Assembly: GCA_965223855.1 (NCBI GenBank)
Contig: CBDCXM010000009.1
Location: 1,376,001 to 1,440,000 of the forward strand
Source: Candidatus Multivoradales bacterium
Lineage (GTDB): Bacteria; Acidobacteriota; Thermoanaerobaculia; Multivoradales; JAHEKO01
Reading direction: 5' to 3'
DNA length: 64,000 bases
The notes under the pieces were generated by a model that was given only the letters and a program-made list of their open reading frames with translations, made no database searches and had not been told where the DNA came from. Below are positions 7,201 through 54,938 of this stretch, piece by piece; position 1 is the first letter of the stretch, and every line of letters starts with the position of its first letter. Made by a program: the position numbers and the translations under genes.

Positions 7201-8635
7201 TCGGGACGCCCAGGCTTTCGAACAACTCCTTGGTGCCCTGCGTATCGCACGGGTCGTCGCCGTCGCAGGTGCTCTGGTTGCCGTCCGAGAGGACGATCAG
7301 GTAGGTGCGGCGGCAGAAGGTGCTCGGATCGCTGTTCTGCGCAACGTTGACCCATCCTGTGCTGCCGGCCATGAAGTCGTGGAACGACCGCAACGAAGTA
7401 CCGATCGGGGTGGCGCCGAACGACAGAATCGGCCGCGCCGCCTCGTCCTTGAGCCGCAACTCGTCGGCCGGGTTGACGATGTCCTCGAAGTACGTGGCGA
7501 CCCTGAAATCGGGGTTGGCGTTTGGGTCGAGCGCCAGGTTCGGTGCCAGTCGCTCGAGCAACGCCTGGCGGTTGTCGTTGCGCCAGTCGATCGGCAGCAC
7601 GTCGCCGACGTCGAGGAGGCCCGGGAAATCGACGTCCGGGACCGTCGGCCAGCGGATGTTGTAGCCGTCCCAGGTGTCGGCGACGGTGTCGGTGTTGGCG
7701 TCCCAATTGACGCACGTGTTGCCGGCGGGGCCGTCGCTCACCGTCCCCTGAGCAAAGAAGCCGGGCTGAAAGTCGGTCCGATCGGTGTTGATGTCCCAGT
7801 TGTCGAAGTCGGTGACGTAGCCGAAATCGACTTCCCGGGTCTCCACCTGGTCGAACGTAGTGCAATCGATGTCGGCGCACCGACGGCGTCTCACCTGCAT
7901 CTCGATCGTCGGCGCGCCGAGCGTGGTCGAGTTCGAGGTGAGGGCGCCGAAGCGCATCTCGTAGGTCTCACCGCCGAAGGCGACGAAGAAGGTCCGGAAG
8001 GCGTTCGCGTCGCCGTTGAGATCGGGCGTGTGCTTGGGCCACGCCTGCATCCGTTCGCGATCCCACCGCAGGTTGAGGTTGGCCGGCGTGGCGGCGGCGC
8101 ACCCGGTGTCGTCGTCGGGGTCGGGTCCGACGAAGCAGCCCCAGGTCGCGCCGAAGGTGTGTAGGTCGCCCTGCACGGGGTCGGGGCCGGAGGTGTCTCT
8201 GCCGCGCGGGTAGGGCCCGTAGCCGGGGATGTTCGGACCGTCTTCCAGTGCCTCGTAGAGCCAGTGCTTGCGCCGCAGCCGCAGGTCGTCCTGGTTGAAG
8301 GTGGCGAAGCCGACCTGGATGTCGTCGGTCTGGTCGATCACCTCGTAGACCGCCTGCTTGGCCTGGAAGAGCTTCGAGTTCGGGCTGTCGCCGGCACCGG
8401 GAGCCCAGCAGCTGCCCAGCGGGCAGAGCAGGTCGCACTCGCCGGCATCGAAGTCCTCCTGGGTGCACTGGGCGCTCCAGTGCATCGAGCCGGAGGTGTC
8501 GAAGAGAAAGAAGACCGTCGGCAGCTCCTCGAACCCGGAGATGAGGCGACGATCGTCGGCGAAGGTCGGGGCGACGCAGGCCGCGCCGAGAGCGACGACG
8601 AGCGACAGGAGGCAGAGGCGGGAAGTTCGGTTCAT
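4280..8635 (-). CDS. pilY1: Type IV pilus tip adhesin PilY1/PilC (vWA plus beta-propeller), 1451 aa
   Basis: Signal peptide; MIDAS-like DTSGSM and LSDG; PilY1 propeller motifs DIFHSDP, FGANGGMLH, GRELFAVVP, YSVDG, DTNFDGYID; follows minor pilins. Confidence 0.9.
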   Translation of the reverse strand: MNRTSRLCLLSLVVALGAACVAPTFADDRRLISGFEELPTVFFLFDTSGSMHWSAQCTQEDFDAGECDLLCPLGSCWAPGAGDSPNSKLFQAKQAVYEVIDQTDDIQVGFATFNQDDLRLRRKHWLYEALEDGPNIPGYGPYPRGRDTSGPDPVQGDLHTFGATWGCFVGPDPDDDTGCAAATPANLNLRWDRERMQAWPKHTPDLNGDANAFRTFFVAFGGETYEMRFGALTSNSTTLGAPTIEMQVRRRRCADIDCTTFDQVETREVDFGYVTDFDNWDINTDRTDFQPGFFAQGTVSDGPAGNTCVNWDANTDTVADTWDGYNIRWPTVPDVDFPGLLDVGDVLPIDWRNDNRQALLERLAPNLALDPNANPDFRVATYFEDIVNPADELRLKDEAARPILSFGATPIGTSLRSFHDFMAGSTGWVNVAQNSDPSTFCRRTYLIVLSDGNQSTCDGDDPCDTQGTKELFESLGVPTFVVAFGVAPHRPYLPRCSGDPDEEPGVNCCPSDTDPSCIPSDTVGLPVDEWPPTGPGRENRSLRCMASTGGTGNEDYDLDGSIDSDGPGVIYPQNKDELVDALISILDQIKPAPSAFATAAVPSVQAEAADKVFLSEFTPVPQRSNWIGRVNAFLKPVPVDEFNRPDTSIPCPPDPDPTDPTDDPSACLLWEAGQVILDNQYNEADPVGELANQRRIFYGEFGDRVPRKRHFFEETQDGTTPLAQEFDLWRGFDIPFDPLLTPTHDLARTRANNVIGETLEKKTTPQNDDFPTPIDYLLTDIFHSDPLFFTSPNNLLYFLQDLDGYREFSILHAFRRRVLLFGANGGMLHGLDAGVCREVSGDPRPCIYDNGSGRELFAVVPRQAMPTVRDLTEGLPRHRYSVDGRTQAADVFIDPIHEGTDSTLDPPREDDREWRTVLIGGLREGGHVPPEGIGDLSSPLDSNPLDTEDPRNHPTSGYYVIDVTQPDPLPAVAPGVSPIPEVTGLEPPGCLRSIDGITPAEDGCGPIAFGSILWEFSDSIDGVRLDEDDNGYVDLAFAWSNPNVGRIQVCTSGCTGADPQLEDRYVLIVGGGYDPRAEFQRGNFLYMIDVETGDPIYKFPVMGAVAAEPAAVDTNFDGYIDTVYFGTTLGLLYRTVLFPIDDGGPDLKYPFAELHLVQEVAADGTVVSKLQRRILDTDFAPFVLLETTAPGTIPPEVRPIFYPPSVIFLSEFNKYAIAVGTGERENIFRRQQPSGRFFTFVDNVGQTTIMDPTFEPFSPASTDLEPLTPTSATFGSTNLLLPGEGWWLELAADERLVTEPFALSGILFFSTFIPNPDGPIVIPEESLCRESGTSNIYGVFTTNADGLLSDDPDINSANDLERFVTVEGLVSSPFTEQAQTKNPAPEAGTDVIDTLDNRLRFIRDRLKENFPANCSFPPGYRIDVKTRNSGTGIDFIAPVPICVVEKNFRDF

Positions 8636-8669
8636 GGGGTCTCTCCCAAGGGGGTCTGCGGTTCCCGCC

Positions 8670-9248
8670 CTAGAGGGCGAGCTTCTCCGCGAGGAGCTCA
8701 GGGCTCAGGCGCTCGATCGGAAACAGCGAGGACGCCGGTACCCGCCACGGCTGGATGTCGATTGTGGCGGCGACGCGACGCCGCGTCGTGCTTTCGTAGA
8801 GGTTCTGGCGCTCACCGTTCGAGGGGAGCGCGATGTTGGTGCGCTGGTACGACGCGTCCCGGTAGGAGCCGGCGTTGTTGATCTCGCACAGGTTGCAGGG
8901 CGAGAGCTGCATCGGCAGGAGCGGGCCGACCTCGACCCGGCTCTGGACCAGCTGGGTGTCGACGATGTCCGCCGCCTCGTTGAGGATGTAGGCGTTGTTG
9001 TCGGGGTCGTTGACGTCGTAGGCGTAGTCGCTCGCCACCAGAATGCGGGCCGCGGCGATACCGATCCCGGAGTCGCTCGTGTAGAAGGTCCGCTCGAGGA
9101 TCCGCTCGTTGAAGCCGATCTGGCTCTCGGTGCTGGTGATGAGGGCGAGCGAGAGGCCCATCAGAGTCAGGACGACGAGCAGCAGGAGGCTGATGATGTA
9201 GGCCGAGCCCGCCTCACGGGCGCGGTCGGACAGAAGGTGTCGGTTCAT
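8670..9248 (-). CDS. pilX: PilX-like minor pilin
   Basis: Start ATG 9248; class III leader EAG/SAYIISLLLLVVLTLMGL lacking Glu5, ITSTESQIGFNER; position between pilW and pilY1. Confidence 0.8.
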   Translation of the reverse strand: MNRHLLSDRAREAGSAYIISLLLLVVLTLMGLSLALITSTESQIGFNERILERTFYTSDSGIGIAAARILVASDYAYDVNDPDNNAYILNEAADIVDTQLVQSRVEVGPLLPMQLSPCNLCEINNAGSYRDASYQRTNIALPSNGERQNLYESTTRRRVAATIDIQPWRVPASSLFPIERLSPELLAEKLAL

Positions 9249-10669
9249 CACAGGTTCCTCAGATCGGCGATCGTGGTGAGCAGGAGGCGACGTCGTGAAC
9301 GACCCTCGAGGTTGTTGACGATGTCGTCGTCGTCGAGGGCGTACTGGTGGTCCTCGAGATCGGTGAGCTCGTCCGCCTGGTAGCCGCCGTCGGGGCGGGC
9401 CGCCATGGCGAGAGTCGTGACCCTGGCGTAGTAGAGGCGCGGCCGCGGCTGGCTGTTCGTGAAGGTCGGCGGAGTCGAACCGGCGGCCGAGTTGGGCGAC
9501 CACGGCAGGCTGGTGAGCGCCGAGGTGTCGCCGGCGTCGTTGAAGAGCCAGTCGTCGGTGGCGGTATCGCCGGTCGCCTCCACATCCGCGTCGAAGATGA
9601 CGTCGTCCGGGCCGGTGTTGTTGAGGTCGGCGGCGAAGTGCCCGTCGGAAGACCCGTTCCCGTCGTAGCTCGAGTCGAAGCCGAGGGCGACCTGGAGGTC
9701 GTAGATGTTGTCGGCCAGATCGCTGGCATAGCCGCCGTCGGGGTGTGGCTCCTCGGTCCCGGGGTAGAAGCGGGCGCGCGACAGCCGGGGGGCGCCGCCC
9801 TCGTCAGGCTCCGGCTCCCGGATGTAGTAGCGGTACTCTTCGAGCAGCGCCACCATGCCGACACCGGTGAGATCGCGCGGCGGGACCCAGTCGGGGCGGT
9901 TCATGAGGGCGCTGTCCGGAAAGACGCCGTCGGCGGACAGTCGGTCGTACGCGGCGGCATGCGGGCTCGCATTACCGACCTGGTAGGCGACGGTGATCGT
10001 GAACTGGACGGTGGGGTCGGGTTCGTAGGGGTCCGGAACTCCCGTCAGATCCGAGCCGCCGGGATTGAGCTGCGCCACGCCGTAGATCTCGTCGCTGAGA
10101 TTGCTCACGAGGAGCAGCGCGTCGGGGCGGCCTGCCCGGATCGCTTCGATCAGCGCGCTCAGGTCCTGGAACACCGAGCCGGCGACGTGGCTCGCGACGA
10201 CCACCGAACCGCCGGCGCCGCCGACGGGGGCGAAGGTGGCCGGATTGGTGAAGTCGACGAAGAGCGGCGGGCTGTTGAAGTGGCCCCGCACGGTGAGCAC
10301 GTCGGTCCCCTCGAGGACCGCGTCCGAGTCGTTGTTGTCGAGGGAGATCTTGGTGTCGGCGGGAACATTGTTGCGCAGCGAGATGGCGGGCGTGACCGAA
10401 GCGGGGAAGGAGGCCGCGGTGTCGCCTGCGACCGCGAAGCCGGGCAGGCCGCCGCGACCCGCCATCCGCAGGTAGCGCAGTAGCTCTCGCTGAGCGACGC
10501 GGCCGGACTGCTGGAGATCGGACTGGTGGATCTGAGCCCGCGACAGCTTGTTCGTGTAGTTGAACATCGCGAAGGCGCCGCCCAGCACGAGGGACACCAG
10601 AACCAGGGTGACGAGCAGCTCGACGAGCGAGAAACCACTCTCGCGATGAGGAGTCCGGGCGGTGATCAT
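9248..10669 (-). CDS. pilW: PilW-like minor pilin
   Basis: Start ATG 10669; ESG/FSLVELLVTL, LLRYLRMAG, LADNIYDLQVALG, terminal ADLRNL; TGATG coupling on both sides. Confidence 0.8.
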   Translation of the reverse strand: MITARTPHRESGFSLVELLVTLVLVSLVLGGAFAMFNYTNKLSRAQIHQSDLQQSGRVAQRELLRYLRMAGRGGLPGFAVAGDTAASFPASVTPAISLRNNVPADTKISLDNNDSDAVLEGTDVLTVRGHFNSPPLFVDFTNPATFAPVGGAGGSVVVASHVAGSVFQDLSALIEAIRAGRPDALLLVSNLSDEIYGVAQLNPGGSDLTGVPDPYEPDPTVQFTITVAYQVGNASPHAAAYDRLSADGVFPDSALMNRPDWVPPRDLTGVGMVALLEEYRYYIREPEPDEGGAPRLSRARFYPGTEEPHPDGGYASDLADNIYDLQVALGFDSSYDGNGSSDGHFAADLNNTGPDDVIFDADVEATGDTATDDWLFNDAGDTSALTSLPWSPNSAAGSTPPTFTNSQPRPRLYYARVTTLAMAARPDGGYQADELTDLEDHQYALDDDDIVNNLEGRSRRRLLLTTIADLRNL

Positions 10670-42763: not shown

Positions 42764-43323
42764 CGAAGGAAGAACGGCAGAAGAGACTGCTGGCGGCGCT
42801 GCTGGTGATCCTTGCGGTGTCGCTCGGCTATCGCGCGTTTCAGGGGGCTTCGAGGGACGCCGATGGGCCGGCGGCCCAGCGCAGGCTGTCCGGCTCCGGT
42901 GAACTGGCGCGGATCGAGCTGCCTCACCTCGAGCTCGAGCTGCTGCGTCGCGAAGCCGCCTCCTACACGCCGGGGCGCGATCTTTTCCGCTTCGCCGAAA
43001 AGGCGCCGCCGCCCCAGCCGCGGCCGGCCGTCGAGCGCCGGCCGGCGCCGCGGCCGCAACCGCGACCGGTCGCCCGGCCGGCGACGCCACCGACGCCTCC
43101 CCGGCCCCAGCCGCCGGCGATCGACTTCAACTACCTGGGCAGTTTCGGTCCGCCCGAGCGCCGCATCGCGGTGTTCGTGAAGGGCGACGAGATCTACAAC
43201 GCATTGGCGGGGGACGTCCTGATGGAGCGCTTTATCGTCGATAAGATCGGCTTCGAGTCGGCGGACATCGGGTTCGTCGGTTTCCCGGATGCTCCCGAGG
43301 CCCGGCTGCAGGCGGGAGGGTGA
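42760..43323 (+). CDS. PilP/GspC-like protein
   Basis: Start GTG 42760; TM helix, GRDLFRF, Pro-rich linker, FNYLG...GDVLMERFIVDKI beta domain. Confidence 0.65.
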   Translation: MTKEERQKRLLAALLVILAVSLGYRAFQGASRDADGPAAQRRLSGSGELARIELPHLELELLRREAASYTPGRDLFRFAEKAPPPQPRPAVERRPAPRPQPRPVARPATPPTPPRPQPPAIDFNYLGSFGPPERRIAVFVKGDEIYNALAGDVLMERFIVDKIGFESADIGFVGFPDAPEARLQAGG

Positions 43324-43360
43324 GGTCATGTCGGTGCAATTCGCGAGAGGAACGAATCGG

Positions 43361-45880
43361 ATGAAGCCCTGGCGCACTGTGATGGCGCTGCTCGTGTTGC
43401 TGACGCTCGTCGGCTGCTCGGGCTACCGCAGCTACCGGGAGGCACAGAGCGCCGAGCGCAACGGCGACTGGGACGAGGCGGTGCTCCACTATCTCGAGCT
43501 CACCGACCAGTACCCGAGCAACATCTCCTACAAGGCGGGCCTGCTGCGAGCCAAGATCAAGGCGTCGCAGGAGCACTTCCAGCGTGCGAAGAAGCTCCAC
43601 GCCGTCGGTTCGCTCGAGCAGGCGCGGCGGGAGTACCTGCAGACGCTGCAGCTCGATCCGTCGAATCAGTACGCCCAGGTCGAGTACGAGAAGGTGCAAC
43701 AGGAGATCGAGGCCAACGACGGCCAGGCCGGTCCGCGCTCGATCGACCAGATGAAGCAGAAGGTCAAGGAGGAGCAGGGCGGCCCGCCGACGCTCAACCC
43801 CAAGTCGAACGACCCGATCTCGCTCAACTTTCCGAACAAGGTGAGCGTGCGCGACATCTATCGGGCGCTCGGCAACGCCTTCGGTATCAACGTTCAGTTC
43901 GACTCCAAGCTGCGCGACAAGACGCTCGCGATCGAGCTGACCGACGTCACCGCCCAGGAGGCGCTCGAGTTCCTGATGCGCGCCGCCGGGCACTTCTACA
44001 AGGTCCTCAACGAGGACACGATCATCGTCATCGAGGACAACGCCCAGAACCGGCGCGAGTACGAAGAGCAGGTGATCCAGACCTTCTTCCTGTCGAACGC
44101 CGAGGTCAAGGAGATGCTGACGCTCCTGAGAAGCCTCGTCGGCACCAAGAACATTGCCTCGAACGATCAGCTCAACGCGATCGTGCTGCGCGACTCGGCA
44201 GACGCCGTCAAGGTGGCGGAGCGGATCATCCAGGCCAACGACAAGGCGCGCGGCGAGGTGGTGGTCGACGTCGAGCTGCTGCAGATCAACACCTCGAAGA
44301 TGCAGGACCTGGGGATCGAGCTCTCCCAGTACCGGATCAACCAGAACCTCGACCAGGATCCGGCTCTCCGGGTCTCCGATCTCGAGTTCCTCAATCAGCA
44401 GAACTGGGAGATCACGCTTCCAGGCTTCATCTACGACTTCATCAAGACGAGCTCCGAGGCGCAGCTTCTCGCCAACCCGCAGGTGCGCATCAGCGACGGC
44501 GAGCCGGCGAATCTGGTGATCGGCGACCGGGTGCCGATTCCGGTGACGACGTTCAACTCCGCGCAGACGGTCGGCTCGAACATCGTGCCGATCACCTCGT
44601 TCCAGTACCAGGACATCGGCATCCGCCTCGAGATCGAGCCGCGCATCCACCACAACCGCGAGATCACCCTCAACATCCAGGTCGAAGTGGCGAGCGTCGC
44701 CGGTTCGGTCGAGGGGACGGGCGGGGTGCAGCCGATCATCGCCACCCGCAACATCCAGTCGACGATCCGGCTCAAAGACGGCGAGACGAACTTCCTCGCG
44801 GGCCTCATCCGTGACGATCAGACGACCGGCCAGACCGGCGTCCCCGGGCTGGGTGATATCCCGATTCTCGGCCGCTTCTTCTCCAAGAAGTCGAACGACA
44901 ACCGGCGCACCGATCTGGTGCTGACGCTCACCCCCCACATCATTCGCACCGCCGACATCACCGAGGAAGACCTGCAGCCGCTGTGGGTCGGCACCGAGGG
45001 CAACCTGACCTTTCGCGGCGGCAGCCCGCGGGTCGAATCGGAGGTCGAGGGACCGTTCGACGACGACGAGGTCGACGACGAGGAGAACGAGCGCATCCGC
45101 GACCTGATCCGTCGCCGCATCGAGTCGCTGCCGCAGGGGCTGCGCGACGAGGGCGAGGAGGAGGGAACCCCGGGGATCGATCTCGTGCCTTCGTCGCCGC
45201 CGAGCGATCCGTTCGGGCGCAACGACGACGATGGCGACGATGGCGACGACGACTCGAGATTCGACCTGTCGATCCGCCTCCCCGAACGGCAGGATGCATC
45301 TGCCGTCTACGCGGCCTGGGCCGCCGCACCCTCGGGTGGCGGAGGTGGCGGGGACCGCGGGGGAGACGCAGCGCCGGTGGTCACCGCGAGGCTCGTCGCC
45401 GATCGCACCTCCGTGGAAGTGGGCCAGGAGATCGAAGTGCGCCTCGAGGCCGACGCCGCGGTCGAGATCTCGCACCTGCCGACGACCCTGCGCTTCCCCG
45501 GCCGGCGGCTCGAGGTGGTGAGCGCCGAGATCGGCGCGTTCCTGGGGCCGGAGGGGGCCGCTCGGATGCTTTCCGATCTTGCCCGCCCCGGCCACGTGGT
45601 GCTGGGGCCGAGCCGTCTCGGCCGGCGACCAGGAGTCTCCGGCAGCGGAGTGGTGGCGGTCGTGACCTTCCGCGCTCTGGCCGAGGGGGAGGCACGGATC
45701 CGCTTCGGTGATCTCGAGGTTCTCGACCCGCGGCTGGCGGAAGTCGAGCCGGTCGGCCGACAGGGGCTGACCCTCGACGTCGTCGCCGCCGGGACCCTGC
45801 CGCCGCCGGCGGACGACGGTCTGGAGCGTCCTGCGCCTGAGGAGCGGCCCGCGGCGTCGCCGACGGAGGATCCGCCGTGA
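43361..45880 (+). CDS. Lipoprotein secretin (GspD/PilQ family) with N-terminal TPR and C-terminal cohesin-like domain
   Basis: LVGC lipobox, TPR, N domains, LLANPQVR, YQDIGIRLEIEP, VPGLGDIPILGRFF, then GSGVVAVVTFRA beta-sandwich. Confidence 0.9.
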   Translation: MKPWRTVMALLVLLTLVGCSGYRSYREAQSAERNGDWDEAVLHYLELTDQYPSNISYKAGLLRAKIKASQEHFQRAKKLHAVGSLEQARREYLQTLQLDPSNQYAQVEYEKVQQEIEANDGQAGPRSIDQMKQKVKEEQGGPPTLNPKSNDPISLNFPNKVSVRDIYRALGNAFGINVQFDSKLRDKTLAIELTDVTAQEALEFLMRAAGHFYKVLNEDTIIVIEDNAQNRREYEEQVIQTFFLSNAEVKEMLTLLRSLVGTKNIASNDQLNAIVLRDSADAVKVAERIIQANDKARGEVVVDVELLQINTSKMQDLGIELSQYRINQNLDQDPALRVSDLEFLNQQNWEITLPGFIYDFIKTSSEAQLLANPQVRISDGEPANLVIGDRVPIPVTTFNSAQTVGSNIVPITSFQYQDIGIRLEIEPRIHHNREITLNIQVEVASVAGSVEGTGGVQPIIATRNIQSTIRLKDGETNFLAGLIRDDQTTGQTGVPGLGDIPILGRFFSKKSNDNRRTDLVLTLTPHIIRTADITEEDLQPLWVGTEGNLTFRGGSPRVESEVEGPFDDDEVDDEENERIRDLIRRRIESLPQGLRDEGEEEGTPGIDLVPSSPPSDPFGRNDDDGDDGDDDSRFDLSIRLPERQDASAVYAAWAAAPSGGGGGGDRGGDAAPVVTARLVADRTSVEVGQEIEVRLEADAAVEISHLPTTLRFPGRRLEVVSAEIGAFLGPEGAARMLSDLARPGHVVLGPSRLGRRPGVSGSGVVAVVTFRALAEGEARIRFGDLEVLDPRLAEVEPVGRQGLTLDVVAAGTLPPPADDGLERPAPEERPAASPTEDPP

Positions 45881-46827: not shown

Positions 46828-47637
46828 ATGCCGGAGTTGATGAAGCACTCCCGCCGCCGGAGCCGCTCGCCCCGGAGCCGCTCGCGGAGACGCTCGATTG
46901 GGGAGCTGCGCGAGCACGGCTACAACCTCGTGTTCCTGATCTGCATGTTCACCCTGCTGAGTGTCGCCCTCACGGCGGCGCTGCCGCGCTTCGAGCACTG
47001 GGTGCAGCGCGAGAAGGAGGCGGAGCTGATCTTCCGCGGCATGCAGATCGCCGAAGGGATCCGTATCTTCCAGATGAGGCACGGCCGCTACCCAAACTCG
47101 CTCCAGGAGATGCTCGAGGTCGAGCCGCGCTCCCTGCGCCAGTTGTGGCGCGACCCGATGAGCGACGACGGCAGTTGGGGGCTCATTCTCGCCAGCTCCG
47201 GCGGCGGCGAATCGGGGCAGGCGGTCGACGAGGACGGCAACCCGGTCGATGCCGATCAGAACCAGGGTCGTAACCTGGCGGCGGGAAGTGCCCCGTCGCA
47301 GGGTTTCCAACTCGACCGTCCCAGCTTCGGCACCCCCAACCTGACGGGGCCGATCCTCGGCGTCGTCAGCCGCTCGAAGCGGCAATCGATCCGCACCTTT
47401 CTCGACAAGGACGTCTACTCGGAGTGGCGCTTCACCGCCACCATGCTGCCGCAGCCGGCGCTGATCCCGGGAGCGACCCAGGTGGCGAGTGCCAGTGTCG
47501 AGAACTTCGGCCGCCCGTTCCCCCCTGGGGTCAAGCCGCAGGCCGGTACCGGCCTGGGAGGGGAGGCGGCCGAGCTCTCCGGCGGCAGTGCACCCACGAA
47601 CCTGTTCGATCGCGACGGTGGGGAGGACGGCGGTTGA
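46828..47637 (+). CDS. Minor pseudopilin lacking Glu5 (GspK/PilX-like role)
   Basis: HG/YNLVFL leader, [35 protein letters not shown]. Confidence 0.75.
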
Positions 47638-48122
47638 CGGTCCCGGACAGAGCGGCCGGCCAGGCCGTCGGTCGGGTCGTCGTCCGAGTCAAGCGCCTCG
47701 ACGGTCAGGAGGATCTGCCGCTTCCCAGCCTCGCCTCTGCTCAGGCGGCGGGCTGGGACCTTCCGGCCGGAGTCAGAGAACCGTTCGAGCTCGAGCCGGG
47801 CGCCCGCGCGCTCGTACCCTGCGGCATTGCTCTGGAGATACCGGACGGTTTCGAGGGGCAGGTCAGGCCGAGGTCGGGGCTCGCCCTGCGTCACGGGGTG
47901 ACCGTGCTCAACGCTCCCGGGACGATCGACGCCGACTATCGTGGCGAGGTCGGCGTGATCCTGGCGAACTTCGGTGACCGGCCGTTCACCGTGGCTCGCG
48001 GCGACCGCATCGCCCAGCTCGTCATCGCGCCGCTGGCGCGAGGGGTAGCGTTCGAGATCGCCGAGGCGCTCGCCTCTACCGAGCGCGGTTCCGGCGGCTT
48101 CGGATCGACCGGCACCGACTGA
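47634..48122 (+). CDS. dut: dUTP diphosphatase
   Basis: Start TTG 47634; [40 protein letters not shown]. Confidence 0.97.
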
Positions 48123-48405: not shown

Positions 48406-48777
48406 TCAGCCGCCTTTCCGGGTCGATTCCGCCGTGCGCGCCGCGAAGCCGCGCACCAGCAGGTTGAAGAGCGCCAGCACGAGCCCGCCGAGGATCGCCG
48501 GCAGGCAGCCGGAGACGCTGAGCCCGTCGAGCAGCGCCGCCGCCAGCCAGAAGAGCAGGCCGTTGACCACGAGGTAGAAGAGCCCGAAGGTCACGAGAAT
48601 CGCCGGCAGCGACAGCAGCGTGACGATCGGCTTCACCAGCAGATTCAGGGCGCCGACGACGATGCCCGTCAACAGCAGGTAGGCCAGCGATCCCTGATAG
48701 GCGACTCCGGGGACGAGTTTCGCGGCGACGACGATGCCGAGGCCGTTGAGTACGAGTCTGGCGAGCAGGTTCATCAT
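48406..48777 (-). CDS. 4-TM phage-holin-like membrane protein (YvlD type)
   Basis: LNLLVKPIVTLLSLPAILVTFGLFYLVVNG signature. Confidence 0.9.
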   Translation of the reverse strand: MMNLLARLVLNGLGIVVAAKLVPGVAYQGSLAYLLLTGIVVGALNLLVKPIVTLLSLPAILVTFGLFYLVVNGLLFWLAAALLDGLSVSGCLPAILGGLVLALFNLLVRGFAARTAESTRKGG

Positions 48778-49391
48778 CAGTTCACCGCCGGATCCGAGTC
48801 GCTGTCGAACACGGCCAGCGACTCCGGCTCGATGCCGAGCCCTTCGAGGGCGCGGTCCCAGATCGTATCGGGCGCGGTGTCGAACAGCAGCTCGTCGGTC
48901 GCCCGGGCCACCAGCCAGTCGTTGCGCGACACCTCCTCGACCAACTGACCCTCGCTCCAGCCCGCATAGCCGAGCACGAGACGGAAAAATTCGGGCGGAG
49001 CGGAGGCGAGTTCCGCGAGCGAGCCGACGTGCTGCGTCATCCGCAGCCCGGGCGCCAGCTCGACCGCCGTCTCCGGGTCGACCTCGATCCTCTCTCCCGG
49101 CTGCTCGCGGAAGAGCACCGTGCCGAGCTGTGGCTGCACCGGCCCTCCGAAGTAGGCGTTGGCGCCTTCTTCACCCTCCCACGCGATCTCGAGTCCCGAG
49201 AGGATCTCCGCCACCTTGATCTCCGTGCGGCGGTTGAGGATGAAGCCGAGACTGCCCTCCTCGCCGTGCTGGAGGAGCAGCACCACGCTGCGATGGAAGA
49301 ACGGGTCGAGAACGCGCGGCGTGGCCAGCAGCAGAACCGGCGGCTCGAGGGCCGGAGGGGTGATCTCGGGTGACGTCGCAGCCGCGGCCAT
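48777..49391 (-). CDS. YqgE/AlgH family protein
   Basis: LLLATP, DPFFHRSVVLL, GFILNR, FGGPV, LGYAGWSEGQLVEE. Confidence 0.93.
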   Translation of the reverse strand: MAAAATSPEITPPALEPPVLLLATPRVLDPFFHRSVVLLLQHGEEGSLGFILNRRTEIKVAEILSGLEIAWEGEEGANAYFGGPVQPQLGTVLFREQPGERIEVDPETAVELAPGLRMTQHVGSLAELASAPPEFFRLVLGYAGWSEGQLVEEVSRNDWLVARATDELLFDTAPDTIWDRALEGLGIEPESLAVFDSDSDPAVN

Positions 49392-49489
49392 AGACGGATC
49401 TTACGCGACGAGCGGTAACGGAAGCCTCTTCGCGGGCGCCCTGTTACGGGAAGGGCGGAGACGACAAGTCCCGGAAAGGAAGGATCACG

Positions 49490-50056
49490 ATGCTGCGTAG
49501 TCGGAACCCGAAGCTTCTGTGGATCGCCTGTCTGTCGGTTTCTACCGGCTGCCTGTCGACCCTGCCACCCAAGGACCTCGCACCGGTCGGGAGTGTCGAG
49601 CGGGCGGCCGCGACCGACCTCTCCGGAAGCTACTGCTTCAGCGACCCCGAGGAGAGCGTCCGAGGCTTCGAGCGTGATCTGTCGGACCTCTCCTGGTTGC
49701 CGCTCGACAGAGCGGAGGAGGGGACTCTCATCGAAGTGCGCCACGATGGCGACTCGATCGGCTTCTCCTTCGTCGATGCCGAGGGAGAGCCCCTGACGGC
49801 GCACACGAACCTGGGCGAGGCGGCGAGCGTCGAGAACGGCGTCATCACCGTGGATCGCCGCGCGAGTTCCAGGGGAGCGCGAATGGGAGTCGGCCGCTCG
49901 CGTGAGGAGAGCTATGCCTTCCGGATGGCGGACGGCCGCCTGGTGCTCGGAACACTCTCCGCCGAACGCGGAATGGCTTTCCTCGTCGTCCCCTTCCGGG
50001 AGCGCTACGAGATCGTCGTCGAGCTGGCTCCGGCGATCGACGGTGGCTGCCACTGA
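49490..50056 (+). CDS. Hypothetical lipoprotein
   Basis: GAAAGGAAGG RBS, STGC lipobox, beta-rich body. Confidence 0.65.
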   Translation: MLRSRNPKLLWIACLSVSTGCLSTLPPKDLAPVGSVERAAATDLSGSYCFSDPEESVRGFERDLSDLSWLPLDRAEEGTLIEVRHDGDSIGFSFVDAEGEPLTAHTNLGEAASVENGVITVDRRASSRGARMGVGRSREESYAFRMADGRLVLGTLSAERGMAFLVVPFRERYEIVVELAPAIDGGCH

Positions 50057-50109
50057 AGTTCCGGCACGGGCCGGTCCCCTGGGCCAATCCTGGTGCTAGC
50101 GTAGCCGCC

Positions 50110-50577
50110 ATGTCGGCACCTTCGAGCCTCACGAGAAGCCTCACGGCGCTCCTGCCGCTCGCTGTGCTCGCCTTCCCGTGTGCAACGTCGGCGGAGCCCG
50201 AGGCCGGGTTCCATGAGGGAGCGGATGTGGCCTGGATCACCCGTTCGGGAGACCGGGTGGATCTCGAAGGGCACCTCGTGCCGGGCAAGGTGACGGTGTT
50301 CGACTTCTGGGCCGAGTGGTGCCTGCCGTGCCGCGAGGTCGATCGGGCGATGGCGGCGATCCTCGCCGAAGCTCCCGATGTCGCCCTGCGCAAGATCGAC
50401 GTCGTCGAGTGGGATCGGCCGGTCGTCGAGCAGCACCTGAGCCGGGTCGAAGCGCTGCCGTACCTGATGGTCTATTCCGCCGAGGGAAGGCGGGTCGGGG
50501 TGGTCGAGGGGCTCGACGTGGAGAGGCTCGAGCGTGCGATCGAGAGGGCGCGTGGCGCCAGGGGAAGAGGGCGATGA
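50110..50577 (+). CDS. Exported thioredoxin-family protein (WCLPC)
   Basis: Signal peptide, VFDFWAEWCLPC, ALPY cis-Pro loop; ATGA overlap with the next gene. Confidence 0.9.
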   Translation: MSAPSSLTRSLTALLPLAVLAFPCATSAEPEAGFHEGADVAWITRSGDRVDLEGHLVPGKVTVFDFWAEWCLPCREVDRAMAAILAEAPDVALRKIDVVEWDRPVVEQHLSRVEALPYLMVYSAEGRRVGVVEGLDVERLERAIERARGARGRGR

Positions 50578-51617
50578 TCCGCCGCGTGCTGCTGATGGCG
50601 GCCGGGGTCGCCCTCTTCTGGCAGGGAGTGGCCCTCGGCGGTGCCTGAGCCGGCTGAAGCAACCCCAACCTCCCGGGAGGAGGTTCCGCCACTCTCTACG
50701 ACCTGGAGCCGGGCCGGTTTCACGTTACCTTCGACTGGATGGGAACCAGGCTCGGCGCCGGCCATTCCGTGGACCCGGACCAGTACGAGCCGGGCATCCC
50801 CGACGATGAACAGGCCGCCCGCCACCTCGTCGATCTGACGGTGCAGGAGCTCGCTACCCGGCTCTCCCTGGGGGTGACGAAGAGGTGGGCCGTCGATCTC
50901 GAGATTCCGCTGCGCGACGTCGCCATCGAGGCGGATTTCGAGGACGCGGCGGGTCGCCCTCTTCCCGATTTCGAGAGCATTCACCACCGCGACGAGACGA
51001 TCTCCGGTGTCGGCGACGTGAGTGTCACCGGCCGCTACCGTTGGAAGCCGCTCAACCTCGTCGGATGGTTCTTCGACCTCTCTGCGGGCGCAACTCTGCC
51101 GACCGGCCACACCGAAGAGGACCCGTTCGACCTCGGCAGCCGCGGTCTCGAGCACCAGCACCTCTTCTTCGGCAGCGGCACGGTCGATCCGATCGTCGGC
51201 GTCACGGCGGTGCGGCGCGGGGAGTCGTCGGTGACGCTCGGTTGGTTCAGGGCGAAGACCGCGATCGACACGAACTCCAGGGGATACCAGGCCGGCGAGC
51301 GTCTCTCGGCCGGCATCGCGGCGACTCGAAACTTCGGTCGCGAGCTGTGGAACTTCACCGGTCAGCTAGAGGTCTTCCACGAGGGGGCTTCTACCTGGGC
51401 CGGCCGGGACGCTCGCAACAGCGGCCGCACCGATCTGCTCACGAACCTCGGAGCTTCGTGGACGCCGGATCCCGACTGGACGCTGCGCGCGGTACTGCGC
51501 CTGCCGACAAACCTCGACGCCCGTGGTGGTCAGTTGGACCTCGAACCGATCCTCTCTTTCGGCGTCACGCGGTCCTGGAGCTTCGGGGAGCACGTGCACG
51601 AGGAAGAAGACCACTAG
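50574..51617 (+). CDS. Putative selenoprotein: outer-membrane beta-barrel ('transporter'/MetA-pathway-like) with N-terminal UxxU motif, 347 aa
   Basis: ATG 50574; 24-aa signal-like peptide; in-frame TGA 50646 and TGA 50655; frame continues without stop into the 50739-51617 barrel ORF (SGVGDVSV, GATLPTG, GSGTVD); hairpin directly downstream of the TGAs. Confidence 0.8.
50667..50685 (+). promoter_or_regulatory. Candidate bacterial SECIS element
   Basis: AACCTCC-CGGGA-GGAGGTT, 7-bp stem with G at loop position 2; 16 nt separate the second UGA from the loop and 25 nt the first. Confidence 0.65.
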
Positions 51618-51849
51618 TCAGGCCCGACAGGAGCGCCGGGCTGCCGCGATCGAGCGCGAAGTTGCGGCGAACGACCTCGGGCACCTCAGCTCCCGGTCTC
51701 GACTCCTCGAGGCAGCTCGGCACCCATTCCCGGAGGCGATGGGATCAGGCCACGGCTTCCGCGAAGTCGGGGCGGCCTGCCTGCGAGTGCCGGTGCTACG
51801 GTTGCCGGATGTGCGGCGGGAGTTGCCTGGGATGACGGGCGGAAACCAC

Positions 51850-54117
51850 GTGAGGAGTCCGAGCACCCGGGCGCTCGGAGCGTTCCGGGTCTCTGCGGTG
51901 CTCGCGATTGCCGGCTTTCTCCTGGCTCTCGCGCTGGCTTTTCGCGGAAGGTTGGAGATTCCCGCGACCCGACGAGACGGAGGCGTTAGGGTGAGTGGGG
52001 GTACCGAGGAGATGGCGCGGCGACTCGATGCCGCCGTCTCCGGGCTCGATCCGCTCCGCTCCCTTCTTTCCGACCGTCCCGAGGTGCGCATCGAGGCGTT
52101 TCGTAGCAAGTGGACGGCGGCCACCCGCCGCCCCGATCGGATCCGCACCGGCCACCGGCTCGGCTTCGTGCAGCTCGCCAACGGCAGGATCGATGCCGCC
52201 ATCGACACCTACCGGGAGCTTCTCGACCCGATCGCCGGACGCATCCGCCCGCGGCTCGAGGCGATGCTGCGGACGTTCCTCGCTTCGGCCTATCTGCGTC
52301 GGGCCGAGGACGGCAACTGCCTCGAACCGGGGAATCCACGGGCCTGTTTGCTGCCGATCCGCGGTCACGGGGTGCACCAGGAGGGGGAGGCGGGACGTCT
52401 CGCCCTCGAGGAGTTGTCGAAGGTCCTCGAGCTGACGCCCGAGGATCTCGGAGCGCGCTGGCTGCTCAACCTCGCAGCGATGAATCTCGGGAGCCACCCG
52501 GAGGGCGTGTCGGAGGAGCTCCGGTGGGACCTCGATCTGTTCGGCCGCCAGGCCGAGCTGACCGAGTTCCCGAACACCGCCGGCAGTGCGGGCGTCGATG
52601 TTCTGGGCCTTTCCGGCGGGGTGGTCCTCGACGATCTCAACGGGGACGGTTCGCTCGATCTCCTCGTCTCGTCCTGGGGACTGCGCGATCCCCTGCAGGT
52701 GTTCGCCAACGACGGCTCGGGCTCGTTCGTGGAGATCACCGAGCGGGCCGGGCTCGACGGCATCACCGGCGGGCTCAATCTCGTTCACGGCGACTACGAC
52801 AACGACGGCGACGTGGACGTCTTCGTCCTCCGTGGGGCGTGGCAGGACCGTTTCGGCGAGATGCCCAACTCGCTGCTGCGCAACCGCGGCGACGGCAGCT
52901 TCGACGACGTCACGATCGAGGCGGGAGTGTTCAGCGCCCGTCCGACGCAGACCGCCGCCTGGGGCGACTACGACGGCGACGGCGACCTCGATCTCTTCGT
53001 CGGCAACGAGTCCCGCGGCAACCGCGACTACCCGTGCGAGCTGTTTCGCAACAACGGCGACGGCACCTTCACCGAGGTCGGAGAGGCGGTGGGCGTCGCG
53101 GTCGTCGGCTTCGTCAAGGCCGCGGTCTGGGGCGACTACGACAACGACGGCCGCCCCGACCTCTTCCTTTCGCGTTTCGGCCAGGGCAATCTGCTCCTGC
53201 GCAACGAGGGCCCCGGCAGTGAGGACTCCCCTGGCGACGAGTCGTGGCGGTTCGTCGATCGCTCCATCGCCGCCGGCGTGGCCGATCCGGCGGAGAGTTT
53301 CCCGGCCTGGTTCTGGGACTACGATCAGGACGGTTGGCTCGATCTGCTGGTGCTGCCGTTTCCGGGGTTCGACGCTCGCGCCCTCGATCAGGTGATCGCC
53401 GGCTACCTCGGTCGACAGACCGTCGCCGCAGTGCCGCGTCTCTTTCGGAATCTCGGTGACGGCACTTTCGAGGACTCGACCACGGCCGCCGGCCTCTCCG
53501 GCGAGAGCATGCTGGCGATGGGGTCGAACTTCGGCGATCTCGACAACGACGGCTGGTTCGACTTCTATGTCGGCACCGGCACTCCCGACCTCGCGACCCT
53601 CGTTCCCAACCGGATGTACCGCGGCGGGGCCGACGGCATCTTCGAGAGCGTCACTCTCTCCGGCGGCTTCGGCCATCTGCAGAAGGGACACGGGGTCGCT
53701 TTCGGCGACATCGACGATGACGGAGACCAGGACGTCTATGCGGTGCTCGGTGGCGCCTACCCGGTCGACGTGGCGCGCAATGCCCTTTTCCTCAACCCCG
53801 GGAACGGGGGCCGTTGGCTGACGCTGCGACTGGTCGGTCGATCCGCGAATCGCTCGGCGATCGGCAGTCGCGTGCGGATCTTCACCTCGGGGCCGGGAGG
53901 GTTGAAGACACATCATCACCTGGTCGGCTCCGGCGGCAGCTTCGGCGCTTCGAGTCTGCGCCTCGAGGTCGGCCTGGGAACTGCCGACGCGATCGAGATC
54001 GTGGAGATCGACTGGCCCGGCGGCGCGACCGAGCGGGTAGAGGGTCTCGAACTCGACTCGTCCTGGGTCGTCCGCGAAGGGCGAGGTGCGACCCGGCTCG
54101 TGAGGAGGGGCGCCTGA
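51850..54117 (+). CDS. CRTAC1/ASPIC-UnbV family protein with TPR and FG-GAP repeats
   Basis: Repeated GDYDNDGxxDL motifs, ARWLLNLAAMNLG, GHLQKGHG, NRSAIGSRV, GSGGSFGASSLRLEVGLG; start uncertain. Confidence 0.88.
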   Translation: MRSPSTRALGAFRVSAVLAIAGFLLALALAFRGRLEIPATRRDGGVRVSGGTEEMARRLDAAVSGLDPLRSLLSDRPEVRIEAFRSKWTAATRRPDRIRTGHRLGFVQLANGRIDAAIDTYRELLDPIAGRIRPRLEAMLRTFLASAYLRRAEDGNCLEPGNPRACLLPIRGHGVHQEGEAGRLALEELSKVLELTPEDLGARWLLNLAAMNLGSHPEGVSEELRWDLDLFGRQAELTEFPNTAGSAGVDVLGLSGGVVLDDLNGDGSLDLLVSSWGLRDPLQVFANDGSGSFVEITERAGLDGITGGLNLVHGDYDNDGDVDVFVLRGAWQDRFGEMPNSLLRNRGDGSFDDVTIEAGVFSARPTQTAAWGDYDGDGDLDLFVGNESRGNRDYPCELFRNNGDGTFTEVGEAVGVAVVGFVKAAVWGDYDNDGRPDLFLSRFGQGNLLLRNEGPGSEDSPGDESWRFVDRSIAAGVADPAESFPAWFWDYDQDGWLDLLVLPFPGFDARALDQVIAGYLGRQTVAAVPRLFRNLGDGTFEDSTTAAGLSGESMLAMGSNFGDLDNDGWFDFYVGTGTPDLATLVPNRMYRGGADGIFESVTLSGGFGHLQKGHGVAFGDIDDDGDQDVYAVLGGAYPVDVARNALFLNPGNGGRWLTLRLVGRSANRSAIGSRVRIFTSGPGGLKTHHHLVGSGGSFGASSLRLEVGLGTADAIEIVEIDWPGGATERVEGLELDSSWVVREGRGATRLVRRGA

Positions 54118-54200: not shown

Positions 54201-54938
54201 ATGAAGCTCGAAGAACTACGCGATGTCTACGAAGGGCTCGGCGAAGACGATCCGCTGTGGGCGGTGCTGACCGCAGATCGCTACCGCGACAATCGCTGGG
54301 ACCCAGAGGCCTTCTTCGCCTCCGGAAGGACCGAGATCACCGAGGTCGTGGGGTACCTGGAGCGGCTCGGCCGATCGCCGGAAGGGGGCAGGGTGCTCGA
54401 CTTCGGTTGCGGGGTTGGCCGGCTCTCGCTCGCCCTCGCGGAGCACTTCGACGACGTGACGGGCGTCGACATCTCGACGTCGATGCTCGAACGGGCACGC
54501 GACTTCAACCGTTTCGGCGACCGGGTGCGGTTCGTTCACAACGACCGTGCAGATCTCGAGGTCCTCGGCGACGCCCGGTTCGACCTCGTCTACAGCAACA
54601 AGACGCTGCAGCACATCGCCCCCCGCTTCTCGCTCGCCTATGTGGCGGAGTTCCTCCGACTCCTCGCTCCGGGCGGTGTGGCGCTCTTCATGATTCCCGC
54701 CGGTCCGCACCGCGCGGGATCGTGGTCGCGGCGCTGGTACCGGCTGTGGTCCGAGCGTCTGCGGCCGGGACTCAAGCAGCTTCGCGGGCGGCCACGGGTG
54801 GAGATGCACTCCGTCTCGCCCCGCGAGGTGGCGGAGACGGTCGAGGCGGCGGGCGGGCGGATCGTCGACCGGGTCGATCAGTCGCCGCGACGCCGGCGAA
54901 GGAAGCGGATGCGCTACTGCGCCGTCGTCGAAGGCTAG
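54201..54938 (+). CDS. Class I SAM-dependent methyltransferase
   Basis: VLDFGCGVGRL, GVDIS, FDLVYS, LQHI, LAPGG. Confidence 0.92.
   Translation: MKLEELRDVYEGLGEDDPLWAVLTADRYRDNRWDPEAFFASGRTEITEVVGYLERLGRSPEGGRVLDFGCGVGRLSLALAEHFDDVTGVDISTSMLERARDFNRFGDRVRFVHNDRADLEVLGDARFDLVYSNKTLQHIAPRFSLAYVAEFLRLLAPGGVALFMIPAGPHRAGSWSRRWYRLWSERLRPGLKQLRGRPRVEMHSVSPREVAETVEAAGGRIVDRVDQSPRRRRRKRMRYCAVVEG

Follow-up and report, generated by a model that had tools for sequence, protein, structure and literature searches.

A 64,000-nucleotide stretch of Candidatus Multivoradales bacterium (assembly GCA_965223855.1, contig CBDCXM010000009.1, positions 1,376,001 to 1,440,000), here called the window, carries a gene for a predicted outer-membrane β-barrel protein with two in-frame TGA codons. 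The codons are spaced as the cysteines of a CxxC motif and are candidates for selenocysteine (Sec, U). The barrel gene follows a gene for an exported thioredoxin, whose TGA stop overlaps its ATG (ATGA). Features of the locus are listed in Table 1.

Table 1. Features of the thioredoxin and barrel genes (window coordinates)
Feature	Coordinates	Strand	Basis
Exported thioredoxin partner, 155 aa	50110..50577	+	Signal peptide; WCLPC; PF00085, 3.7e-9
Barrel gene, putative selenoprotein	50574..51620	+	347 codons plus TAG, both TGAs read through; two-TGA orthologues; PF13557
Signal peptide (predicted), residues 1-24 (...VALGGA)	50574..50645	+	Hydrophobic N-termini; small-x-small before the first U/C
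UGA1, putative Sec25, first residue of UxxU	50646..50648	+	TGA in 49/53 loci, Cys in 4/53
UGA2, putative Sec28	50655..50657	+	TGA in 51/53 loci, Cys in 2/53
SECIS-like hairpin	50667..50685	+	Stem 50667-50673/50679-50685; loop CGGGA 50674-50678
12-stranded β-barrel (predicted), residues 48-336	50715..51581	+	AlphaFold2; Foldseek; invariant columns
His/acid-rich tail EHVHEEEDH, residues 339-347	51588..51617	+	Sequence; longer in orthologues

Read from its ATG, the barrel gene gives MIRRVLLMAAGVALFWQGVALGGA, the first TGA, GCC GGC, the second TGA, and then SNPNLPGGGSATLYDLEPGRFHVTFDW. The part after the second TGA begins with SNPNLPGGG and ends at H347, and its stop is TAG at 51618-51620. The two TGAs are the only in-frame stops. 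This frame, with its pair of TGAs, had been proposed in an initial annotation made from the sequence alone, and it is borne out by the sequence and by homologues. Open reading frame (ORF) calling with translation table 11 returns only 50739-51617, the shortened remainder of the same frame. The window has 68% G+C, and G+C at third codon positions is high in the barrel frame, as for a real gene. Neither TGA varies in the contigs of four public sequencing runs, which come from one study and two samples and are possibly the source DNA.

The first 24 residues form a predicted signal peptide. Judged by eye, the sequence suggests that signal peptidase I would cut directly before U25 and leave the U/C-x-x-U/C motif as the mature N-terminus, because a small-x-small motif directly precedes the first Cys or Sec in the loci and in the Cys forms alike. 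A start at the internal M56 was rejected: this residue is T in a homologue (L023), and it lies within predicted strand 1 (residues 48-65), so that such a start would cut the barrel.

The protein appears to be a divergent member of the PF13557 family, which it matches weakly over residues 105-309 (27 bits, cut-off 22, E 5.8e-6). No NCBIfam family matched it at E <= 0.01. Its structure was modeled with AlphaFold2 from 40 aligned members, with Sec modeled as Cys. A barrel of twelve strands was predicted with confidence (mean predicted local distance difference test score, pLDDT, 90.3; predicted template modeling score 0.83). Among the 40 members, which reach down to 20% identity, twelve columns are invariant (U/C25, U/C28, N30, H64, H137, D148, G172, P176, H194, H196, G202, and W275), and P31, L33, P34, H84, I136, H138, R139, and E141 are nearly so. 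The His/acid-rich tail, reported in the initial annotation and present as described there, corresponds to a His/Asp-rich linker to a thioredoxin domain in three fused homologues (L028, L046, and L060).

Sec and Cys states of the homologues

Real homologues were present in 3 genomes of a relatives' set of 60. All three are Thermoanaerobaculia metagenome-assembled genomes (MAGs), and identities are 75, 72, and 49%. Each homologue carries two in-frame TGAs and no more, which fall in the same columns and in the context GG[AG]-U-[AS][GA]-U-SNPNLPGGG. A Polyangiaceae MAG with 29% identity reads I-U-T-A-U-INPNLPGGG. A metagenome scan, seeded largely with the barrel motif SIHHR[DT]ET and thus blind to the N-terminus, returned 55 loci, of which three end at a contig end before the N-terminus is reached. 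With the Polyangiaceae locus, 53 N-termini were readable. These are UxxU in 49, CxxU in two (L049 and L052), CxxC in two (L055 and L067), and UxxC in none. Identities extend down to about 23%, and at least three phyla are represented. In complete loci, the frame is open for 325-360 codons, about 320 of them past the TGAs, and is longer where extra domains are fused. The two-TGA observation is correct and far beyond chance.

In a phylum sample of 401 genomes, 35 had a match at E <= 1e-10. Strong full-length matches were UxxU in five genomes (G373, G284, G099, G135, and G129) and CxxU in one (G330), and a weaker match (G081) has a single U at the second column. Locus L086 is also CxxU. Among 1.84 billion cluster representatives, a profile search found 594 matches at E <= 0.001, 139 of them at E <= 1e-30. 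In the best 150 of the 594, CxxC after a signal peptide is seen in 13 full-length sequences and reads CxxC-x-N-P/L-x-L in 12 of these. Three more of the 150 have Cys at the second column only (GQATCSNPGLP), and the remainder start past the motif, as gene calling on a TGA-bearing gene would yield. In a collection of 5.8 billion sequences, close homologues span only 81-88% of the query; the names given to them are "hypothetical protein" or "transporter."

If the gene were dead or misassembled, with the TGAs as nonsense mutations or sequencing errors, its product would be a signal-less fragment from ATG 50739 or nothing. Standard annotation does call only that fragment, and nearly all database homologues are truncated calls. 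Against this stand the recurrence of the same two TGAs in most of the independent loci across phyla, with Cys as the sole alternative, the preservation of the signal peptide and open frame upstream and downstream, and the concordant contigs of the four runs. A dead gene is thus extremely improbable, and pseudogene and sequencing error were rejected. An alternative genetic code was rejected as well, because TGA ends the upstream thioredoxin gene and many orthologues of the barrel gene and is an ordinary stop here. The 50574-51620 frame is best explained as a single functional gene for an exported selenoprotein, in which the UGAs would be read as Sec25-Ala-Gly-Sec28.

UGA2 is probably the primary and optimally spaced site, and UGA1 a later addition, because CxxU and single-U forms occur but UxxC never does and because UGA2 lies 11 nt from the conserved core of the hairpin described below. 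The states would then have arisen in the order CxxC, CxxU, UxxU.

Three further groups of homologues were observed. Distant relatives (L096 and L097, from genomes G391 and G278, and P0085, P0087, and P0091) have other N-terminal Cys patterns, either C-G-S-A-N-C-F (Cx4C) or a lone Cys in GQATCSNPGLP, so the second Cys/Sec appears to be the constant one. A low-GC marine clade (L070-L083; L076, 6171-9431) reads FGQ-U-AL-U-SNPSLPVGES and adjoins a Por_Secre_tail (type IX secretion) protein, a neighbor that suggests a host in the Bacteroidota/FCB group. One half of this clade has a neighboring gene with a heavy-metal-associated (HMA) domain and the other half has none. Homologue P0190, named from Paraliomyxa miuraensis, which we take to be a cultured marine myxobacterium, is called N-truncated (MERGRVRLGF...), as Sec forms are. 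It would serve as an experimental model if its DNA carries the TGA pair.

The SECIS-like hairpin and the decoding machinery

A hairpin resembling a selenocysteine insertion sequence (SECIS) follows the second TGA. Its letters, AACCTCC/CGGGA/GGAGGTT, overlap the codons for N-L-P-G-G-G. The 7-bp stem of the initial annotation is present in the window at the position described, but only the inner 5 bp (50669-50673/50679-50683) are kept universally. This core starts exactly 11 nt past UGA2 and 20 nt past UGA1. A SECIS is expected to be a stem-loop shortly 3′ of the UGA with a G at loop position one or two (PMC13582414). The loop CGGGA here and the loop GGUC in a second group of homologues both have a G there.

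The hairpin is supported by comparison. An alignment without gaps was made of 46 distinct 60-nt segments. They fall into two registers, A3 with 35 sequences and A4 with ten, plus one with a larger loop (L040) that belongs to neither, and no single structure fits all hairpins. In register A3 (loops CGGGN, GUC, GGC, or GGU), all 35 sequences keep the 5-bp core paired. Compensation from CG to UA is seen at two pairs and from AU to GC at a sixth pair. The covariation score is 0.076, a value reached by none of 500 shuffles (0.042), and 87.8% of cells are paired, compared with 35-59% in slid controls. In register A4 (loops GGUC or AGUU), a 6-bp stem is 98.3% paired over the ten sequences, and GC, GU, AU, and CG all occur at one pair. 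Several compensatory changes are synonymous on one side of the stem but replace Gly with Asp or Glu on the other, a pattern that speaks for selection at the RNA level. In the two CxxC loci, no such hairpin was found at that place. Because Cys forms also keep the x-NP-x-LP arm, it appears to be a motif of the protein on which the SECIS has been superimposed.

Two side observations concern the hairpin. A divergent Acidobacteriota subgroup (L087-L089) reads U-P-A-U-SNP[SA]I and is without the NLPGG hairpin. In L087 and L089, a first stem lies 4-6 nt past UGA2, and about 26 nt past it comes a second, strong hairpin whose loop is GUC. L088 folds into one long hairpin. In the window, the 30-nt stretch 50654-50683, which holds UGA2 and the hairpin, has about 5 times the word depth of its flanks in the Logan contigs of two runs (X3 and X4). 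It runs on into a different contig and has a loose end at 50683. The depth and the loose end suggest that another gene in the community carries an identical SECIS segment.

The Sec machinery is present in the assembly, which is 92% complete. Contig C8 encodes tRNA-Sec (selC; anticodon UCA, 72.7 bits), selA (486 bits), selB (301 bits), and selD (247 bits), and all four matches exceed curated cut-offs. Of ten other carrier genomes, eight have selA above its cut-off. At one metagenome locus (L046, 5001-10196), selA (6730-8244) and selB (8241-10196) come directly after a barrel gene fused to thioredoxin, all on the same strand. Both UGAs are most likely decoded as Sec by SelB and tRNA-Sec.

One or both UGAs might be read as Cys by a SelB-dependent tRNA-ReC (SelC*), which would give a CxxC, CxxU, or UxxC product. 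Genes like tRNA-ReC are enriched in genomes with UxxU hydrogenases, at about 56% against 2.3%, and either UGA may be read as Cys there (PMC13582414). The spacing between UGA1 and the hairpin is also non-canonical. Run on the whole assembly, ARAGORN returned one tRNA-Sec(UCA), one ordinary 75-nt tRNA-Cys(GCA), and no long-arm tRNA having UCA or GCA as anticodon, without a dedicated search for allo-tRNAs. Insertion of Cys is therefore very unlikely here, and decoding as Sec is preferred. A second match to the tRNA-Sec model (RF01852) is a normal tRNA-Ser(UGA). ARAGORN also made two "tRNA-???" calls with two-letter anticodons (genome G000, C9:1541097-1541170 and C9:2935044-2935134); the stems of the 91-nt call, the only one of the two inspected, are mismatched, and it is probably a false positive.

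The thioredoxin partner and the proposed role

Partners of the barrel gene were surveyed within 2.5 kb at 55 places (54 loci and the window, near-duplicates among them) with local hidden Markov models built from Pfam-defined domains. A same-strand thioredoxin domain ends 54-181 nt 5′ of the first U/C codon in 31 of the 55, and 23 of these 31 proteins also contain an HMA domain. In another four places, thioredoxin is fused to the barrel C-terminus by a His/Asp-rich linker, and one pair of these also has a cupredoxin-like domain (L060). Thioredoxin is thus directly upstream or fused in 35 of 55 places. Five low-GC loci without thioredoxin have a small HMA gene about 100 nt downstream, which brings the places with HMA to 28. 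Partner proteins have signal peptides or lipoboxes, C-x-[ST]-C in the HMA domain, and WC[GLK]PC in the thioredoxin domain. Because gene adjacency combines with domain fusion, there is good evidence that barrel and thioredoxin form a functional pair.

Variants of these partners were also seen. Thioredoxin partners at one CxxC locus (L067:4252-4938) and one CxxU locus (L049:3754-4938) have paired C-x-x-C-H-P motifs (CLECHP, CTVCHP, and CLLCHP) in place of HMA, which could be haem-c-like or metal sites. At L030:6720-8510, a gene for a three-domain multicopper oxidase follows the barrel gene after about 700 nt and may indicate a connection with copper.

Other genes around the window locus were annotated as well. 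Just upstream of the thioredoxin gene, a 188-aa ORF (49490-50056) has a lipoprotein-like N-terminus (…VSTGC) and no Pfam or NCBIfam match. Farther upstream are a secretin with TPR repeats (43223-45880), a dUTPase (47424-48122), and an AlgH-like DUF179 protein (48777-49391, minus strand). Downstream are an FG-GAP/ASPIC (CRTAC1-like) protein (51523-54117), whose ORF overlaps the 3′ end of the barrel gene, and an S-adenosylmethionine-dependent methyltransferase (54201-54938). The secretin, dUTPase, DUF179, FG-GAP/ASPIC, and methyltransferase genes do not recur beside homologues.

For the reading as a genuine selenoprotein gene with two UGAs, whose product works with the neighboring thioredoxin, we put the probability at about 0.85. 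The initial annotation had proposed a 347-aa exported barrel with U25-A-G-U28, truncated by standard annotation and served by a nearby SECIS. Comparative tests support this proposal: the homologues have UxxU, CxxU, or CxxC at these columns, selA, selB, selC, and selD are all in the genome, and the contigs of the four runs have no other letter at either TGA.

Several points weigh against it. Selenium insertion into the barrel protein itself is deduced, while gene integrity, the Sec/Cys pattern, hairpin covariation, the Sec machinery, the fold, and partner linkage are observed. Single-sequence thermodynamics gave no support for the hairpin: RNAfold prefers other pairings, the fold of a 61-nt segment is unremarkable (z = 0.32), and the minimum free energy structure is not the window hairpin. 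No Rfam family fits the region (49000-52500, E <= 10), and the scan gave only a chance match to a long noncoding RNA. UGA1 is 9 nt farther from the hairpin than UGA2, and the hairpin is placed differently in the divergent L087-L089 (genomes G284, G099, and G135). That one SECIS could serve both UGAs is plausible; for UxxU hydrogenases, a 2026 paper raises both the idea of a single SECIS and doubt about it, with tRNA-ReC as a possible source of Cys (PMC13582414). Of the two carrier genomes in which selA stayed below its cut-off, G011 (68% complete) has a selA fragment only, at a contig end, and G284 has no selA match; tRNA-Sec and selB were found in the latter.

The partner and the model add further such points. 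Neither partner was found in 15 of the 55 places; five of the 15 have less than 250 nt of upstream flank, and at least seven have ample flank. The window's own partner is a thioredoxin without HMA. No third conserved gene of a module was found beside homologues, where the other neighbors vary (Met-tRNA ligase, sulfatase, kinases, a leucine-rich repeat protein, a BamB-like protein, and peptidase), which bears on function. In the AlphaFold2 model, the confident barrel contrasts with a low-confidence UxxU arm. The first two ten-residue blocks of the arm have pLDDT 59 and 67 with the signal peptide and 72 and 67 in a mature-only model, a small gain. The conserved His cluster would lie at extracellular strand ends and loops L1-L3, because short turns alternate with long loops in the model. 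Contact between the UxxU arm and this cluster is conjecture.

A role in handling a soft metal such as Cu(I) or Hg(II), or a linked redox role, at the outer membrane has about an even chance of being right. A soft metal is proposed because the HMA domains, His-rich tails, and cupredoxin point there. The initial annotation had guessed at a redox-gated or soft-metal-binding channel, and the conserved HMA-thioredoxin partner lends that guess indirect support. SelB and Sec-tRNA, acting on the hairpin, would carry translation through both UGAs. The barrel protein would then be exported, cut before U25, and placed in the outer membrane. There the periplasmic thioredoxin may keep the flexible U-x-x-U arm reduced, and the diselenol arm may bind or relay a thiophilic ligand, most likely Cu(I) or Hg(II). 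Further metal sites, in the His cluster and the His/acid tail, could act together with the arm.

The UxxU motif might instead have a structural or gating role only. In that case, a COG4313-type channel for hydrophobic compounds would have its N-terminal plug locked by a diselenide, thioredoxin would merely set the oxidation state of the plug, and metals would have no part. This is unlikely. The nearest folds are plugged channels with hydrophobic or polypeptide cargo (COG4313 4rl8, FapF, FadL, and TodX), the Pfam family is PF13557, and the window partner is a plain thioredoxin. Yet HMA recurs beside the barrel gene, also in the low-GC clade without thioredoxin, and the His/Asp-rich tails and linkers, the cupredoxin fusion, and the neighboring multicopper oxidase point to metals. 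Six conserved histidines would also be unusual for a passive hydrophobic channel.

The soft-metal role could extend to a relay across the outer membrane in which barrel and thioredoxin, as a counterpart of DsbD at the inner membrane, pass on electrons or metal; we regard this as unlikely. The thioredoxin, with or without HMA, would reduce or load the diselenol arm, which would thread the barrel lumen and hand electrons or a soft metal ion to a His-coordinated center on the extracellular side. Selenium would have been favored because, at the cell surface, a free N-terminal Sec-x-x-Sec resists oxidation and is the stronger ligand and nucleophile. In this reading, the family would also offer the clearest example in nature of two UGAs routinely decoded through one bacterial SECIS.

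Comparison with known systems

By all signs, the barrel family is undescribed, and it falls within the bacterial SECIS-dependent selenoproteins derived from CxxC proteins. The barrel protein matches none of the catalogued NCBIfam selenoprotein models at E <= 0.01 (NF041027, NF049945, NF041115, TsoA/B/C, and others). A May 2026 review tabulates 119 families of prokaryotic selenoproteins (PMC13188914, Table 1), with no PF13557 or COG4313 entry in its accessible text. The outer-membrane proteins listed there are an MtrB/PioB-family barrel and a TonB-dependent receptor; UxxU is listed for a Prx-like protein, NF041115, and an FmdB-family protein. The family is without mention in the accessible parts of PMC13188914, PMC2398784, PMC9312934, PMC13582414, PMC13326102, PMC12013277, and PMC5877670. 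It was likewise not found in the accessible literature, including the BSepDB and deep-Sep papers, although supplements, BSepDB entries, or subscription journals could list it.

The family stands out in that UxxU is the majority state, the motif probably forms the mature N-terminus of an outer-membrane barrel, and the barrel has an HMA-thioredoxin as its dedicated partner. If confirmed, it would add a widespread selenoprotein family, with 594 cluster representatives, from Acidobacteriota, Myxococcota, and a low-GC marine lineage. Gene callers systematically truncate its members, and annotated proteins are left without signal peptide and active motif. Since UxxU is normal here and not rare, the family offers a natural system for a question of 2026, how two UGAs nine bases apart are served by one SECIS. 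The barrel and exported HMA-thioredoxin would form a two-component envelope module, with Cys and Sec versions, that is probably connected with how copper or mercury is handled at the cell surface.

Precedents exist for Sec in outer-membrane proteins, but the one named in the initial annotation does not hold. It had cited Geobacter ExtI as a Sec-containing porin; ExtI is a putative porin, and the selenoprotein of its gene cluster is ExtKL, a cytochrome (PMC5877670). The real precedents are the GSU2204 MtrB/PioB barrel (NF041027) and the FCYXU TonB-dependent receptor (NF049945), which are also exported, predicted Sec barrels (PMC13188914 and PMC12013277). These have one Sec, are much larger, and carry it at another motif position, whereas the protein described here is a small barrel with two putative Sec at the mature N-terminus. 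UGAs nine nucleotides apart, derived from CxxC, likewise occur in a UxxU Prx-like oxidoreductase, NF041115, FmdB-family proteins, and Group 4 [NiFeSe] hydrogenases (PMC13188914 and PMC13582414). These prokaryotic UxxU proteins also share one downstream SECIS-like hairpin and CxxU forms within their families, but their folds are unrelated to the barrel and they act in cytoplasmic or other contexts.

Among channels of known structure, COG4313/PF13557 proteins (Pseudomonas putida F1, PDB 4rl8) share the Pfam match, the predicted 12-stranded barrel, and an N-terminal extension (Foldseek E 3e-11; template modeling [TM] score 0.58 by query and 0.73 by target; 13% identity in the structural alignment). 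To our knowledge, the COG4313 family has no C/UxxC/U-x-NPxLP, SIHHR[DT]ET, or HQH His cluster and no thioredoxin or HMA partner. The best Foldseek match was the FapF amyloid-secretion channel (PDB 5o65 and 5o67; E 2.6e-12; TM score by query 0.52), which is also 12-stranded and plugged. With 13-16% identity, another operon context, and no Sec/Cys motif in FapF, the likeness is one of fold only.

The partners share a signal peptide, C-x-[ST]-C, and WC[GLK]PC with MerP-type HMA proteins and TlpA/ResA-type thioredoxins. Their NCBIfam matches are weak and far below cut-off; thioredoxin matches the C-terminal part of TsoB with 27.5 bits against a cut-off of 805. In MerP, TlpA, and ResA systems, a metal-binding Cys pair is kept reduced and a soft metal is handed over. 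Unlike those types, the partners here combine HMA and thioredoxin in one protein that is dedicated to an outer-membrane barrel.

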